The translations under genes and the position numbers were made by a program. From assembly GCA_045538275.1 (NCBI GenBank), contig JAZSRB010000008.1, forward strand, positions 15,750 through 79,749: a stretch of 64,000 bases of DNA. Reading direction: 5' to 3'. Position 1 is the stretch's first letter; every line of letters starts with the position of its first letter. The notes beneath the pieces are model-generated. The model searched no databases. It was not told the DNA's origin and saw only the letters and a program-made list of their open reading frames with translations. The DNA is from Akkermansia sp. (GTDB lineage Bacteria; Verrucomicrobiota; Verrucomicrobiia; Verrucomicrobiales; Akkermansiaceae). Of this stretch, positions 13,164 through 18,755 are shown piece after piece.

Positions 13164-13285
13164 GCTCAAATATCCTCCTCATGCAGATTATCCTTGAAAA
13201 ATCATGTTCTTTGCGTTAAAAGTAGCACAGGGCAATTTTTATGTCCACCAGGATTTCTTACTCGAACCCCAAACATACTAAAACT

Positions 13286-14212
13286 ATGGAAACCTCATTC
13301 AAGATTCACGGCCTCTGCGCAGCCACGCACACCCCCATGAACGCTGATGGCTCCTGCAATCCCAATGCAGTAGACGCACAGGCCAAATTCCTGGCCAGCC
13401 AGGGCATCAAATCCGTCTTCATCACCGGCTCCACCGGTGAATCCGCCCACATGCAACTCACCGAGCGTAAGGAAAACATGGCAGCATGGGGCGAAGCCGG
13501 CAAAAAATATGGCATCGATGTCGTAGTACACACCGGTGGCAACTGCGTTTACGACGGCCGGGAACTTGCGGCCTATGCTGCAAAATGCGGCGCCACCGCC
13601 ACCGCCAGCAACGCCCCCTGCTACTTCAAGCCGGGCAGCATTGACCTGCTGGTAGACAGCCTTGCCGTGGCAGCCTCCGGTGCCCCCGAGCTCCCGTTCT
13701 ACTTCTACGACATTCCCGTGCTCACCCACGTAGGCTTCAACCCCTGCAAAGTCATCGAAGCCTGCGCCAGGAAGATTCCCACCTTTGTAGGCGTGAAGTT
13801 CACCAACCCCGACCTCGCCCTGTACATGGACGCGCTGAACTACGAAGGCGGCAAGTACGACATCCCCTGGGGCGTGGACGAATGGTTCCTGGGCGCCTAT
13901 GCCACTGGTGCCAAGGGTGGTGTAGGCTCCTCATTCAACTACGCCCCCAAGCTGTATGATGACATCATGAAAGCCGTGGACGCCGGCGATCTCGCCGAGG
14001 CTCGTCGCCTCCAGCAACTCTCCGTCACCATGATCAACATCATCGCCGGCAAGGGCTACATGGGCTGCTGCAAGTACCTCATGAGCGAATGGACCGGCGT
14101 CGACTTCGGTCCGGCACGCCTCCCCATGGGCAAGCAGGACAAAGCCACCCTCGATGCGCTCAAGAGCGAGCTCAAGGCCATCGGGTTCTATGACTGGGCC
14201 ATCTACAAGTAA
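13286..14212 (+). CDS. nanA: N-acetylneuraminate lyase (DHDPS superfamily)
   Basis: GSTGE motif, YDIP Tyr, Schiff-base Lys in GVKFT. Adjacent to an AGE epimerase. Confidence 0.8.
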   Translation: METSFKIHGLCAATHTPMNADGSCNPNAVDAQAKFLASQGIKSVFITGSTGESAHMQLTERKENMAAWGEAGKKYGIDVVVHTGGNCVYDGRELAAYAAKCGATATASNAPCYFKPGSIDLLVDSLAVAASGAPELPFYFYDIPVLTHVGFNPCKVIEACARKIPTFVGVKFTNPDLALYMDALNYEGGKYDIPWGVDEWFLGAYATGAKGGVGSSFNYAPKLYDDIMKAVDAGDLAEARRLQQLSVTMINIIAGKGYMGCCKYLMSEWTGVDFGPARLPMGKQDKATLDALKSELKAIGFYDWAIYK

Positions 14213-14232: not shown

Positions 14233-15426
14233 ATGGACACGAAAGCACTTGGCGAATTCTACAAAGACAAGCTGCTCAATGAGGTAGTACCGTTCTGGTT
14301 CCCCCGTTCCCTGGATAAGGAGAACGGGGGGCTCTACCACTGCTATGCCGCAGATGGCACCCTGGTGGACACCGACAAGAACGTATGGGCCCAGGGCCGC
14401 ATGGCCTGGATGCTCCTCACCTGCTACAACAGCATCGAAAAGAACCCGCTCTGGATGGAATGCGCAGAAAGTGCGCTCAGGTTCCTGGAAGAAAAATGCG
14501 CTGACCACCAGCTCAACCGCATGTACTTCCACGTAACGGCAGAGGGCACCCCCATCCGCATGCGCCGCTACGCCTACAGCGAATGTTTTGCCGCCATCGC
14601 GTGGGCAGCCCACTACGGCGCCACCGGTGCTCCCCACAGTGCAGAACGTGCACGCAACTGGTTCGGAGTCTTTGCTGACATCTTCTTCACCCCGGGCAAA
14701 ATGACCCCCAAGGGTACCGGCAACCGCCCCGGCGAAAACCTGGGCTGCCGCATGATTATGCTGGTAACAGCACAAGAAATGCGCCGCTATCTAGGAGACG
14801 AAGGAGGCATCTACACCGCCTGGATTGACCGTTGCATCAACGATCTGCAGACCCTGTTCCTGCATGAGGAAATCAAGGCCGTACTTGAAAACGTAGCACC
14901 GGATGGTTCCATTATCGACCACTTCGATGAGCGCACCCTCAACCCCGGACACGCTATTGAAGGCGCCTGGTTCATTCTGGAGGAAGCCCGCTCCCGTGGC
15001 GGTGACCAGAAAGCCCTTATCGACACCGCCTGCAAGATGATTGACTGGTCTCTGGAGCGCGGCTGGGACAAGAAATACGGCGGTCTGCTCTACTACACCG
15101 ACGTATTCGGAGGCCCGGTGCAGGAATACTGGCACAACATGAAGTTCTGGTGGCCGCACGATGAAGCCCTCATCGGCACCTGCCTGGCCTACGTCATGAC
15201 CGGTGATGAGAAATACGCTGAATGGCACCAGCGCATTCACAACTGGGCATTCGAGCACCTGCAGGACAAAGAACACGGCGAGTGGTTCGGCTATTGCAAC
15301 CAGGACGGCACCACCACCAACGGTCTCAAAGGCTCCATGTGGAAATCATTCTTCCACCACCCGCGGGCCCTCTGGTGCTGCGCACACTATCTCGGGGCCA
15401 TTTCCGCCCCCTCCACACAAGCATAA
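14233..15426 (+). CDS. nanE: N-acylglucosamine 2-epimerase (AGE family)
   Basis: WAQGR, NPGHAIEGAWF, KFWWPHDE and KSFFHHPR motifs typical of the AGE family. Confidence 0.88.
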   Translation: MDTKALGEFYKDKLLNEVVPFWFPRSLDKENGGLYHCYAADGTLVDTDKNVWAQGRMAWMLLTCYNSIEKNPLWMECAESALRFLEEKCADHQLNRMYFHVTAEGTPIRMRRYAYSECFAAIAWAAHYGATGAPHSAERARNWFGVFADIFFTPGKMTPKGTGNRPGENLGCRMIMLVTAQEMRRYLGDEGGIYTAWIDRCINDLQTLFLHEEIKAVLENVAPDGSIIDHFDERTLNPGHAIEGAWFILEEARSRGGDQKALIDTACKMIDWSLERGWDKKYGGLLYYTDVFGGPVQEYWHNMKFWWPHDEALIGTCLAYVMTGDEKYAEWHQRIHNWAFEHLQDKEHGEWFGYCNQDGTTTNGLKGSMWKSFFHHPRALWCCAHYLGAISAPSTQA

Positions 15427-15446: not shown

Positions 15447-16628
15447 ATGATTATCGGCATACTCAATTCCGGCGGCGACTGCCCCGGCATCAATGCGGTG
15501 ATTGAAGGCTACGTCTCCGCTGCCTACCGCCGCGGTTGGCGAGTCATCGGTTTCCACGACGGCTTCGAAGGTCTGCTCCCTGTAGCAGGCGGCCGCCGTT
15601 ATGAAACCCTCACTCCCAGCAAAACACATAAAATCCGCGCTTATGGCGGTACCATTCTCGGCACCACCAGCACCGGCAACTTCAAGGTAGTCACCAACAA
15701 GGTAGGCCGCCGCCAGGTGGATCGCGAAGTTATGGCCAAAGCCAAAAAGACCATTAACGCCCTGGGGCTCCAGGCTCTGGCCGTTATCGGCGGCAGCGGT
15801 TCTGCACGCACAGCCAAGCTCCTCTCCGAGGAAGGGCTTCCCGTGATTTCCATTCCCAAAACCATTAACAACGACCTCTGCAGTGACTCCGACTACACGT
15901 TCGGATTCCACAGCGCCGTTTCCGTGGTAACTGAATCCATTGACCGCATCCGCACCACCGCCAACGCCCACCAGCGCATGATGGTGATTGAGGTAATGGG
16001 CGACATGTCCGGCTGGATTGGTCTTTACGGCGGCATTGCCGCAGCAGCAGACGTAGTACTCATCCCCGAAATCGACTACGACCTTGAAAAAGTGATTGAA
16101 TGCATCAAGGCCCGCAAAGCCACCGGTCAGCGTGAAATCATCGTTGTTGTAGCGGAAGGCTCCCGGCTGAACGGCCAGCTTGTTACGGTTCACAACAAAG
16201 AAAATGGAGATGAACGCCTCGGCGGCATCGGCAACAAGCTCTCCCACATTCTGCAGGAACGCACCGGCATTGAAACCCGCTACTGCGTGCTGGGACACAC
16301 CCAGCGCGGTGGCTCCCCCTGCGCATTTGACCGCATCCTGGGCGTGCGCTTCGGCGTTGAGGCCGTAAAACTCATTGAGAAAAAAGACTTCGGCAAAACC
16401 GTTGTGCTCAATGGTCTCAACATCGACAACGTCCCCATTGAGGAAGCCGTGGCTCACCACCGCTTCGTGAACCCCGATAGCCAGATTATCAGCACTGCTC
16501 GTGACCTGGGCATCATCTTCGGCGACCGCAGCCCGGAGGAAATGCACCATGACCGCAAGCGGGTATGCTCCACCAAAAAGGAACCCGCCCGCAAGTGCTG
16601 CAAATCCAAGTCGGCAAAGTCTAAATGA
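15447..16628 (+). CDS. 6-phosphofructokinase paralog with degenerate active site
   Basis: Pfk fold motifs (GGDCPG, GGTILGT, RYCVLGHTQRGG) are present, but GGSGS, PKTINND and MGD replace GGDGS, PKTIDND and MGR. K/C-rich C-terminal tail. Confidence 0.85.
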   Translation: MIIGILNSGGDCPGINAVIEGYVSAAYRRGWRVIGFHDGFEGLLPVAGGRRYETLTPSKTHKIRAYGGTILGTTSTGNFKVVTNKVGRRQVDREVMAKAKKTINALGLQALAVIGGSGSARTAKLLSEEGLPVISIPKTINNDLCSDSDYTFGFHSAVSVVTESIDRIRTTANAHQRMMVIEVMGDMSGWIGLYGGIAAAADVVLIPEIDYDLEKVIECIKARKATGQREIIVVVAEGSRLNGQLVTVHNKENGDERLGGIGNKLSHILQERTGIETRYCVLGHTQRGGSPCAFDRILGVRFGVEAVKLIEKKDFGKTVVLNGLNIDNVPIEEAVAHHRFVNPDSQIISTARDLGIIFGDRSPEEMHHDRKRVCSTKKEPARKCCKSKSAKSK

Positions 16629-17587
16629 ACAAAGCCCTCACATATCTGTGCGCGTTAGGGGGCATGGTCAGCAGCCTGCTCACCTCATGCTCCCACCAGG
16701 AGATTATAACGCCGGAAAAAACAACCCCCAGCTATGTTGCTATGGAGGTTAACTCCGGGCGTGTGCTTTACTCATCCAACTCCAACCTCAAGCGCCCCAT
16801 CGGCATGCTGACCAACCTGGCCACCGCCGTAGTCGTCATGGACTGGGTAAAGGCATACCAGGTGGACATGAACCGCCTCATCACCGTACCGGCAGGTGCT
16901 GTGGTCTGGCATCGCACCAACCTGCTCCGTCTGCGTGCGGGCGACAGCATCTCCGTGCGAGATGCTCTGTATTCCGCCCTCATGTGGGATGACAGCGCCT
17001 GCGCCACCACCCTGGCCTATGCTTGCGGCAGCAACCTGAGTACCAGCAACCCGGAGGGGGCCTTCATCGCCCAGATGAACAACCTCGCCCGCAAGCTGGG
17101 CATGACCTCCACCGTATTCAAGGGAACCAATGGAGCCGTCATCACCCAGTCATCTGCGCGAGATATGGCCCTGCTGGGCATCTACGCCACCAACGATACT
17201 GATTTGCTGGCCATTACTGCCCAGACCGGCTGCATCGTCACCATACACTCTGCCTCCGGCACACGCCGCCAGACCATCCGCAACAACAACAAGTTGCTCA
17301 GCGGCTCCGGTCATGTGGATGGGCTCAAGGTCGGGCAATCCCGCAGCGCAGGCAGCTGCCTCATGGTGACCGCACGCCGCGCCTCCGTAAAACGCATCAA
17401 CCCCTCCACCGGCAAAGAAGCTACCTTTGCGCAGCGTCTGCTGGTGGTCATGCTCGGCATGCCCTCCTCCAACACCCGCTACAAGGAAGCTGCCCGCTTC
17501 CTGCGCGATGGCTGGAACGCATGGGACGCATGGTTGCCCACTAACGATTACCTGGATAGAACAAAATTCATCATACTTCCCGAATAA
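16625..17587 (+). CDS. Peptidase S11 (D-Ala-D-Ala carboxypeptidase)-like lipoprotein with degenerate catalytic motifs
   Basis: Lipobox LTSC. S11-like segments (SGRVLY..N...RPI, MN..A..LGMT.T.F, DGLK.G....AG.CL). SxxK reads MLTN and KTG reads KVG. ATGA overlap with the upstream pfk paralog. Confidence 0.8.
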   Translation: MNKALTYLCALGGMVSSLLTSCSHQEIITPEKTTPSYVAMEVNSGRVLYSSNSNLKRPIGMLTNLATAVVVMDWVKAYQVDMNRLITVPAGAVVWHRTNLLRLRAGDSISVRDALYSALMWDDSACATTLAYACGSNLSTSNPEGAFIAQMNNLARKLGMTSTVFKGTNGAVITQSSARDMALLGIYATNDTDLLAITAQTGCIVTIHSASGTRRQTIRNNNKLLSGSGHVDGLKVGQSRSAGSCLMVTARRASVKRINPSTGKEATFAQRLLVVMLGMPSSNTRYKEAARFLRDGWNAWDAWLPTNDYLDRTKFIILPE

Positions 17588-17593
17588 AAGCTT

Positions 17594-18694
17594 ATGAACA
17601 TTGGTATTCTCAACGCCGGTGGCGACTGCCCCGGCCTCAACGCCGTGATTGAAGGTGCCGTTGGCGCCGCATCTGCCCGCGGGTGGACCGTCTATGGCTT
17701 CTATGATGGCTTTGAGGGCTTGCTCTCCACGCCTGAAAACGAACGCTGGCGCATCCTGACGCCCGAAAACTGCCTCAACATCCGCTCCACCGGCGGCACC
17801 ATCCTCGGCACGGTAAACAAAGGCAACTTCACCGTGAAAAGCGGTGTTGGCGGCCGTATGCAGATTGCGGAAGACGTGCTGGCCCGCAGCAAGGCAACCG
17901 TAGAACGCCTTGGCCTCTCAGCCCTCATCGTTGTGGGCGGCGATGGTTCCCAGACCATTGGTCAGGAACTCCGCCAGATAGGTCTGCCCATTGTGGGGGT
18001 GCCCAAGACCATTGATAACGACCTGGGAGCCACAGACTACACCTTCGGTTTCTGGACCGCTGTTTCCGTGGTCAGCAAGCAGCTCGACCGCCTGCGCACC
18101 ACAGCCTATTCTCACCAGCGCATCATGGTGGTGGAAGCCATGGGGCGCCACGCCGGCTGGATTGCCCTGTATGGCGGCATCTCCGGTGGTGCAGACGTGA
18201 TTCTCATCCCCGAGATTCCCTTCACCCTGGAAGACGTAGTGCGCAAGGTGGAACTCACCAAGGCCCTCGGCCAGCGCGAAATCATCATCGTGGTAAGTGA
18301 AGGCGCCACCATCGGCGGCAAACTCCTCACGCTGGATGAAGAGACCAAGGGCGAAGTACGCCTCGGCGGTATTGCCGCATTCCTCTCCACCAAGCTCGAG
18401 ACCCTCACAGGCATCGAAACCCGCTACTGCGTACTGGGCCACACCCAGCGCGGCGGCTCCCCGATTCCCTTCGACCGCGTACTCGGCGTGCGCTGCGGAG
18501 CCAAGGCTATCGACCTCATCGAGGAAGGCAAGTTCGGCGAAACCGTGGCCCTGCACCGCACCGACATGGTTTCCATGCCCATCGAAGAAGCCGTGCGTAC
18601 CCTGCACCTGGTGGACAGCAAGAGCCAGCTCATCGAAGCCGCCCGCGAAATCGGCATTTCCTTCGGTGATGCAGCCGATGCAGGCAACATCTGA
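17594..18694 (+). CDS. pfkA: 6-phosphofructokinase (G104/K124 mixed-substrate type)
   Basis: Intact GGDCPG, GGDGS, PKTIDND, MGRHAGW and LGHTQRGG. Confidence 0.93.
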   Translation: MNIGILNAGGDCPGLNAVIEGAVGAASARGWTVYGFYDGFEGLLSTPENERWRILTPENCLNIRSTGGTILGTVNKGNFTVKSGVGGRMQIAEDVLARSKATVERLGLSALIVVGGDGSQTIGQELRQIGLPIVGVPKTIDNDLGATDYTFGFWTAVSVVSKQLDRLRTTAYSHQRIMVVEAMGRHAGWIALYGGISGGADVILIPEIPFTLEDVVRKVELTKALGQREIIIVVSEGATIGGKLLTLDEETKGEVRLGGIAAFLSTKLETLTGIETRYCVLGHTQRGGSPIPFDRVLGVRCGAKAIDLIEEGKFGETVALHRTDMVSMPIEEAVRTLHLVDSKSQLIEAAREIGISFGDAADAGNI

Positions 18695-18720: not shown

Positions 18721-18755
18721 CACCCGCCGCAGAGCACCTGCAGCGGGTGTTTTTA
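18721..18755 (+). terminator. Rho-independent terminator after pfkA
   Basis: cacccgccgcag/ctgcagcgggtg stem followed by a T-tract. Confidence 0.75.

Follow-up and report, generated by a model that had tools for sequence, protein, structure and literature searches.

A catalytically degenerate phosphofructokinase paralog kept beside an intact copy in Akkermansia, a candidate regulatory partner

A stretch of 64,000 nucleotides from an uncultured Akkermansia sp. (NCBI GenBank assembly GCA_045538275.1, contig JAZSRB010000008.1, positions 15,750 to 79,749 of the forward strand), named here the window, carries two genes of the 6-phosphofructokinase (PFK) family at the same locus. The genome from which it originates has been assembled as 2.1 Mb in 43 contigs. 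The upstream copy, termed psiPfk, encodes a PFK-A paralog devoid of catalytic residues, and the downstream copy, termed Pfk, is canonical. A gene for a DacA-like lipoprotein (dac) lies between them, and genes for a lyase and an epimerase precede psiPfk (Table 1). Profile searches identify psiPfk as a full-length member of the short group III PFK-A proteins: it matches PF00365 over the whole domain (311.6 bits, profile positions 2-277) and NF002872 with 326 bits, for a cut-off of 253. The two paralogs are 56% identical and both possess Gly104 and Lys124, the signature of the short "mixed" group III. Proteins nearly identical to psiPfk are named "MAG: ATP-dependent 6-phosphofructokinase [Akkermansia sp.]" in the database (MAG, metagenome-assembled genome).

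Table 1. Features of the psiPfk locus, in positions of the window (residues 103, 127, 171, 243, 249 and 252 in reference numbering, see text; the others in psiPfk numbering)
Feature	Position	Strand	Remark
psiPfk, 393-residue PFK-A family paralog without catalytic residues	15447..16628	+	Uninterrupted open reading frame, PF00365
Ser117 codon AGC, position of the Mg ligand Asp103	15795..15797	+	GGC GGC AGC GGT TCT, GGSGS in the DNA
Asn141 codon AAC, position of the general base Asp127	15867..15869	+	ACC ATT AAC AAC GAC, TINND in the DNA
Asp186 codon GAC, position of Arg171	16002..16004	+	ATG GGC GAC, MGD in the DNA
RYCVLGHTQRGG, kept fructose 6-phosphate ligands Arg243, His249 and Arg252 (residues 278-289)	16278..16313	+	No variation in any psi ortholog or canonical copy
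psi-specific basic loops GGRRYE (residues 48-53) and KTHK (59-62)	15588..15632	+	Conserved in psi; ENERW and ENC(L/H)N in the co-resident canonical Pfk
Lys/Cys-rich C-terminal tail (residues 361-393)	16527..16625	+	Last ~17 residues (377-393) predicted disordered, pLDDT <50
Pfk, canonical, 366 residues, presumed catalytic partner	17594..18694	+	GGDGS, PKTIDND, MGR; always two genes downstream of psiPfk
dac, gene of an S11 DacA-like lipoprotein, flanked by the two pfk genes	16625..17587	+	ATG overlaps the psiPfk stop codon (ATGA)
Lyase gene, dihydrodipicolinate synthase/NanA-like	13241..14212	+	119.7 bits, NCBIfam equivalog cut-off 281
Epimerase gene, N-acylglucosamine 2-epimerase-like (AGE-like)	14233..15426	+	330.5 bits, NCBIfam equivalog cut-off 600
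Terminator-like hairpin after Pfk, probable operon end	18731..18753	+	Consensus scan only

In the Escherichia coli enzyme, Asp103 is a Mg ligand, Arg171 is located at the transferred phosphate, and Arg243 binds fructose 6-phosphate (F6P) at the subunit interface. Residues 103, 127 and 171 are numbered according to the E. coli/Bacillus stearothermophilus scheme, following an alignment to B. stearothermophilus PFK (PDB IDs 1mto and 3pfk). A 2025 review of the PFK superfamily (PMC12203962) assigns the role of general base to Asp127 and describes Arg162 as extending into the F6P site of the neighbouring subunit. A previous sequence-only reading of the window reported that GGDGS, TIDND and MGR are replaced in psiPfk by GGSGS, TINND and MGD, that RYCVLGHTQR and the Glu of an xEG motif are kept, and that the paralog starting at 17594 is canonical. 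These observations are borne out: the three codons are present in the DNA and the pattern recurs in more than 120 species, the psiPfk translation contains RYCVLGHTQRGG as well as AEG with Glu237, and Pfk exhibits GGDGS, TIDND and MGR. Two of the three substitutions amount to two nucleotide changes each which, together with their recurrence in more than 120 species, excludes sequencing error and chance. Compared with an active 6-phosphofructokinase (EC 2.7.1.11 or 2.7.1.90), psiPfk is hence devoid of Asp127, Arg171 and Asp103 and retains the F6P ligands.

A search of 151 species-level Akkermansia genomes revealed a psiPfk ortholog in about 127 of them, with identities of 68-97%; the carriers are uncultured gut species. 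Residue conservation was analyzed in 15 orthologs and, beyond these, in 120 psi-lineage sequences each representing a cluster, the canonical reference set comprising 24 PFKs of Akkermansia and of four other families of the order. Only three columns that are invariant in the canonical set are fixed otherwise in all 15 orthologs: L16I, D127N and R171D. Asn127 is found in 15/15 orthologs and 120/120 representatives, encoded by AAC or AAT. Residue 171, with Asp codons GAC and GAT, is Asp in 15/15 and 117/120, Asn in 3/120 and never Arg. The loss of catalytic residues deduced from the single sequence thus applies to the lineage, Asp103 also being absent in most species. The orthologs were, in that reading, the place where canonical residues would speak against it; Asn127 is present in every one of them and position 171 is always Asp or Asn, but the GGSGS motif is not conserved. 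At position 103, the 120 representatives harbor Ser (81), Asn (33), Asp (5) or Gly (1).

This last position gives access to the order of events. Certain species use an AGC codon for Ser103 and others a TCC codon, two unconnected codon families, which indicates that Asp103 was lost repeatedly and independently. Three divergent lineages of psi (G024, G111 and G130) have kept it, so that the general base and Arg171 must have changed before the Mg ligand. As read from the alignment, the psi lineage began with the replacement of Asp127 and Arg171, and Asp103 then drifted and was lost several times. Its change is, on this pattern, a secondary drift and not the defining change, of the kind of relaxation expected once catalysis has gone. 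Two lysines of the 72-82 loop, invariant or nearly so in canonical PFKs, were also lost in psi at this later stage. Conversely, Gly11, Gly101, Gly102, Gly104, Ser105, Lys124, Thr125, Asn128, Asp129, Met169 and Gly170 are invariant in psi, the glycines of the nucleotide loop being among them. The F6P ligands Arg162, Glu222, Arg243, His249 and Arg252 are all invariant across the orthologs too, which extends to the whole lineage the retention first seen in one gene. With its phosphoryl-transfer centre dismantled and its Mg ligand drifting, psiPfk is not expected to have any kinase activity. As for Asn127 and Asp171, their strict fixation implies that, under any model, the pocket is subject to a specific new requirement.

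The median dN/dS (ratio of nonsynonymous to synonymous substitution rates) was computed from 50 pairs of species whose dS is <1.5: it is 0.18 for psiPfk as compared to 0.10 for the adjacent Pfk, and dN is about 1.7-fold higher in psiPfk. Median amino-acid distances are close to each other for psiPfk (0.28), the lyase (0.27) and the epimerase (0.31). The psiPfk frame is open in every ortholog, encoding at least 353 amino acids, and is partial only at contig ends. A dN/dS of about 0.18 and the lack of any disrupted ortholog show that psiPfk is a maintained pseudoenzyme under purifying selection. Maintenance rather than decay had been proposed beforehand and holds across about 127 species, with synonymous codons at Asn127 and Asp171. 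The rival reading of a gene decaying in one strain, misassembled or misread, or dying as a pseudogene has nothing in its favor other than the lost catalytic residues. It was refuted by the ortholog conservation of the multi-nucleotide changes, by the open frames of all carrier genomes, by dN/dS and by a divergence similar to that of the lyase and epimerase; its probability is negligible.

The distribution of the two copies indicates how the pair may have arisen. All psiPfk carriers possess the canonical second copy, with the exception of two assemblies (G050 and G133) whose contigs break off there. About 22 of the 151 genomes harbor a single canonical copy, about 57-61% identical to psiPfk. 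This single-copy group comprises larger, closed genomes, including a 2.65-Mb single-contig one (probably A. muciniphila) and Akkermansia sp. N21169. No pfk match was found in two of the 151 genomes, both incomplete, and the four other families of the order exhibit canonical copies only. The gene order lyase–epimerase–psiPfk–dac–Pfk is found in the window and in 14/14 other two-copy species whose loci were fetched. Among single-copy species, three exhibit lyase–epimerase–dac–Pfk and three others, including the probable A. muciniphila, dac-Pfk alone. Since some single-copy species hold the lyase, epimerase, dac and Pfk genes without the extra gene, psiPfk is, judging from synteny, a local duplicate of the Akkermansia pfk that landed between dac and the epimerase gene. 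That it lies near the lyase and epimerase genes is, on the same grounds, a matter of inheritance rather than of new selection.

The protein tree separates the two copies clearly: the psi clade has a support of 100/99 and a stem of 0.77, and the co-resident canonical clade a support of 100/100 and a stem of 0.45. In the free tree, psi takes the basal position relative to all Akkermansia Pfk; the support is weak (87/70) and a long-branch warning applies. A topology in which psi and the co-resident canonical copies form one clade is not rejected by the approximately unbiased test (p = 0.16). Synteny and parsimony favor one duplication event, in the ancestor shared by the two-copy species, as the simplest rather than a proven reading, as the tree does not fix its timing.

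Both copies have changed since. At 6/14 columns where the co-resident canonical copy has fixed changes, psiPfk retains the ancestral state, i.e. that of single-copy Akkermansia. An ancestral KARK motif, for instance, is kept in psiPfk and reads ELLK or ELTK in the co-resident canonical copy. The net charge of the core is about +2 in psiPfk; that of the co-resident canonical copy is -7 to -13 in most cases and -1 to -4 in three divergent lineages. Both copies diverged after duplication, the dead copy having retained basic residues of the ancestor and gained a basic patch, and the live copy having become acidic. It seems that the copies came to share the labour between them, rather than that one of them went idle.

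The psiPfk fold is predicted to be preserved. An AlphaFold2 model computed from a 37-sequence alignment (pLDDT, predicted local distance difference test, 81; pTM, predicted template modelling score, 0.78) matches B. stearothermophilus PFK (PDB ID 3pfk) in a Foldseek search, with a target-normalised TM score of 0.90 and an E value of 1.8e-31, and displays the two-domain PFK fold. The tail following this fold is Lys-rich or polybasic with scattered Cys in most species, e.g. KKEPARKCCKSKSAKSK; in other lineages it is absent, short, neutral or acidic, with CC or CCC runs. Arg21, Arg25, Arg211 and Lys213, the residues of the classical ADP/phosphoenolpyruvate effector site, are absent from the alignment in both paralogs and in all Akkermansia Pfk, and no argument can therefore be drawn from that site.

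The genes of the locus are tightly packed: 20-nt gaps separate the lyase and epimerase genes each from the next gene, the second of these gaps being that upstream of psiPfk, psiPfk and dac overlap by 4 nt, dac and Pfk are 6 nt apart, and a terminator-like hairpin is found only after Pfk. The lyase and the epimerase both score far below their equivalog cut-offs (Table 1), and their substrates may differ from sialic acid and N-acetylmannosamine. A role of psiPfk in a sialic-acid pathway was considered and is weakened by these scores and by the linkage of both genes to dac-Pfk, which is older than the duplication. The Lys of the SxxK motif of the DacA-like protein is missing in every Akkermansia examined (orthologs L034-L053), single-copy species having ASLSQ or SSLAQ at this motif. 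The clade with psiPfk has lost the Ser nucleophile too (GMLTN or GMLAN). With this degenerate motif next to a dead psiPfk, the operon would comprise two apparent pseudoenzymes. A third PFK gene is located on another contig (G000 contig C13, locus L003, 1300-2733, + strand) and encodes GGNDS, PKTIDND and MGRHAGW, probably a pyrophosphate (PPi)-dependent enzyme. The cell would then possess a PPi-PFK, an ATP-type PFK and a dead copy.

Taken together, these features suggest that psiPfk serves the adjacent Pfk as a regulatory partner that binds a ligand without being catalytic, a reading to which we give an even chance of being correct. The invariance of the sugar-phosphate pocket predicts that psiPfk still binds a ligand: a sugar phosphate and perhaps a nucleotide would be bound without turnover. 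Arg162 and Arg243 are sensible only at a PFK–PFK interface. Their retention, the tight operon, the presence of a canonical copy in the same genomes and the parallel divergence of this partner would all fit a mixed oligomer. In the proposed mechanism, psiPfk and the active Pfk would be co-translated from one operon and would assemble as a mixed tetramer. In this tetramer, psiPfk would supply Arg162 and Arg243 to the site of the catalytic subunit, and its own dead pocket, together with the new basic patch, would form a regulatory ligand site. The outcome would be a tuning of the ATP-PFK flux in a cell that also holds a PPi-PFK.

Several observations weigh against such a partnership. The pairwise distances of psiPfk and Pfk are correlated with a partial r of 0.46 once the lyase and epimerase are controlled for, a value no higher than that obtained with the unrelated dac (0.53). 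psiPfk adjoins Pfk partly by origin: single-copy relatives already possess lyase–epimerase–dac–Pfk, and because psiPfk arose beside Pfk, its position by itself says little in favor of a partnership. All cultured Akkermansia are devoid of psiPfk, which is thus not needed for Pfk function as such. Finally, the strict fixation of Asn127 and Asp171 denotes a specific role, but one that may just as well lie in binding another ligand or in a changed chemistry.

The lack of specificity of the co-evolution signal would suit a psiPfk that acts alone, as a homomeric sugar-phosphate binder without action via Pfk: a sensor, a buffer, or a moonlighting binder of RNA, DNA, polyphosphate or membrane through its basic patch or tail. 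The retained pocket, the psi-specific and invariant GGRRYE and KTHK loops and the Lys-rich disordered tail of most orthologs are in line with this, and PMC12980061 reports that PFK subunits of yeast bind RNA. Nevertheless, a tail that is missing or acidic in several lineages cannot carry the core function, and a homomeric binder acting on its own explains neither the invariance of the cross-interface Arg162 and Arg243, nor the changes of the canonical copy after duplication, nor the fact that psiPfk is never found without this copy where contigs allow it to be seen. Such a free-standing role is considered unlikely. The fixation of Asn127 and Asp171, which do not drift, may instead be that of an enzyme with an altered chemistry or substrate. 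Asp171 would then serve, for example, as a base or metal ligand, and the substrate would be an amino-sugar or other sugar phosphate from the lyase/epimerase pathway, or the phosphoryl donor another one. The operon shared with NanA-like and AGE-like genes is favorable to it, as is the existence of other PFK-A clades with non-canonical residues 103 and 171. These possibly active clades all keep Asp127, however, whereas the general base has gone in all psi orthologs. A Mg ligand position drifting between S, N, G and D and the loss of the two 72-82 loop lysines are not expected of a working phosphotransferase, and the link with the lyase and epimerase predates the duplication. An altered enzyme is accordingly rated as distinctly improbable.

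The predicted regulatory partnership has parallels in other systems. The closest structural analogy would be the C-terminal half of eukaryotic ATP-PFKs, also a duplicated PFK unit that has lost catalysis, in which the former substrate sites became effector sites. In human and rabbit muscle PFK, residues 103, 127 and 171 of this half are altered to F, S and G (GGFEA, TVSNN and MGG), with Arg243 and His249 kept. The two eukaryotic units are fused and their mechanism is derived from structures, whereas the Akkermansia copies are separate genes of a bacterial operon, bear Asn and Asp replacements and are known from sequence. The tandem duplication with a regulatory C-half goes back to Poorman et al. 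1984, as cited in PMC12203962. Plant PPi-dependent phosphofructokinase (PFP) would provide an equally fair comparison, its alpha subunit being likewise an impaired PFK-family paralog paired with an active one. This catalytically impaired alpha subunit is co-expressed with the active beta subunit and modulates it in a hetero-oligomer. Plant PFPs are, however, long-type PPi enzymes regulated by fructose-2,6-bisphosphate, whereas the Akkermansia pair belongs to the short group III and exhibits an ATP-type signature (Gly104), and arose by a recent duplication that is limited to a portion of a single genus. Another concept-level parallel is the prozyme of S-adenosylmethionine decarboxylase in Trypanosoma brucei, described in PMC5201418 as a dead paralog kept as regulator of the active enzyme in a heteromer; it has an unrelated fold, belongs to another pathway and is eukaryotic.

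The rarity of the psiPfk residues was surveyed in about 121 single-domain representatives, selected from the 150 best matches among 50%-identity clusters. Their residues were read from an alignment, since a regular-expression motif scan of the 150 gave too much noise. Asp127 is replaced in only about 5 of the about 121, and none of them combines Asn127 with Asp171. About 15 clusters exhibit N or G at position 103 and H or N at position 171 with Asp127 kept; they include "6-phosphofructokinase 2" of Clostridium sp. CAG:58 and proteins from Spirochaetaceae MAGs. These clusters are widespread (P0144, P0150, P0164, P0184, P0194, P0212, P0221, P0226, P0237, P0252 and others). This bacterial clade, with GG[N/G]G and MG[H/N] motifs, resembles psiPfk in being of short group III with non-canonical residues 103 and 171, and differs from it by its retained Asp127, psiPfk having lost Asp127 and acquired Asp at position 171.

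The best-scoring representative in the search of 1.8 billion proteins is P0123, a 730-residue tandem PFK from a Joint Genome Institute metagenome (5.2-kb contig). Its N-terminal half is degenerate at positions 103 and 171 (Arg103 and Gln171) and also has Asn104 and an insertion, and its C-terminal half is of canonical PPi type (GGDDT, MGR), making P0123 a fused counterpart of a degenerate and active PFK pair. P0273, a PFK-like protein of metagenomic contigs (L056 6001-7038, L057 1287-2324), harbors Tyr103, Gln127, Gly129 and Gln171. Its gene directly follows gap and tpi, precedes a Macro-domain gene and has no canonical PFK nearby; it is apparently another dead PFK, in a glycolytic operon. Literature searches did not return any description of a catalytically dead bacterial PFK paralog or of Akkermansia Pfk paralogs, and the 2025 review (PMC12203962) is silent on any dead paralog among bacterial PFKs.

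psiPfk would belong to a known class, that of the catalytically dead paralogs of oligomeric enzymes. PFK is the textbook control point of glycolysis, and its allostery in eukaryotes is thought to stem from a duplication followed by the loss of catalysis in one copy. A bolder version of the regulatory reading can be formulated against this background: psiPfk would be a free-standing bacterial regulatory PFK subunit whose Asn127/Asp171 pocket and basic patch respond to a host-glycan derivative, either a sugar phosphate or an amino-sugar phosphate, gating the irreversible ATP-PFK against the reversible PPi-PFK. The pair would then be a recent replay, with separate genes, of the duplication and degeneration of eukaryotic PFK. 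This full version is speculative, and we hold it to be rather unlikely.

The weight of the finding is limited in that the cultured, medically studied Akkermansia do not carry psiPfk, that its function is deduced, and that dead paralogs are an already known phenomenon. Independently of function, psiPfk orthologs are systematically misnamed "ATP-dependent 6-phosphofructokinase", an annotation error that affects metabolic models of non-muciniphila Akkermansia. If the regulatory reading is true, the pair would be a young bacterial example of duplication followed by loss of catalysis, with the copies still being separate genes. With the single-copy sister species representing the "before" state and more than 120 species serving as replicates, the evolutionary route would be directly testable.

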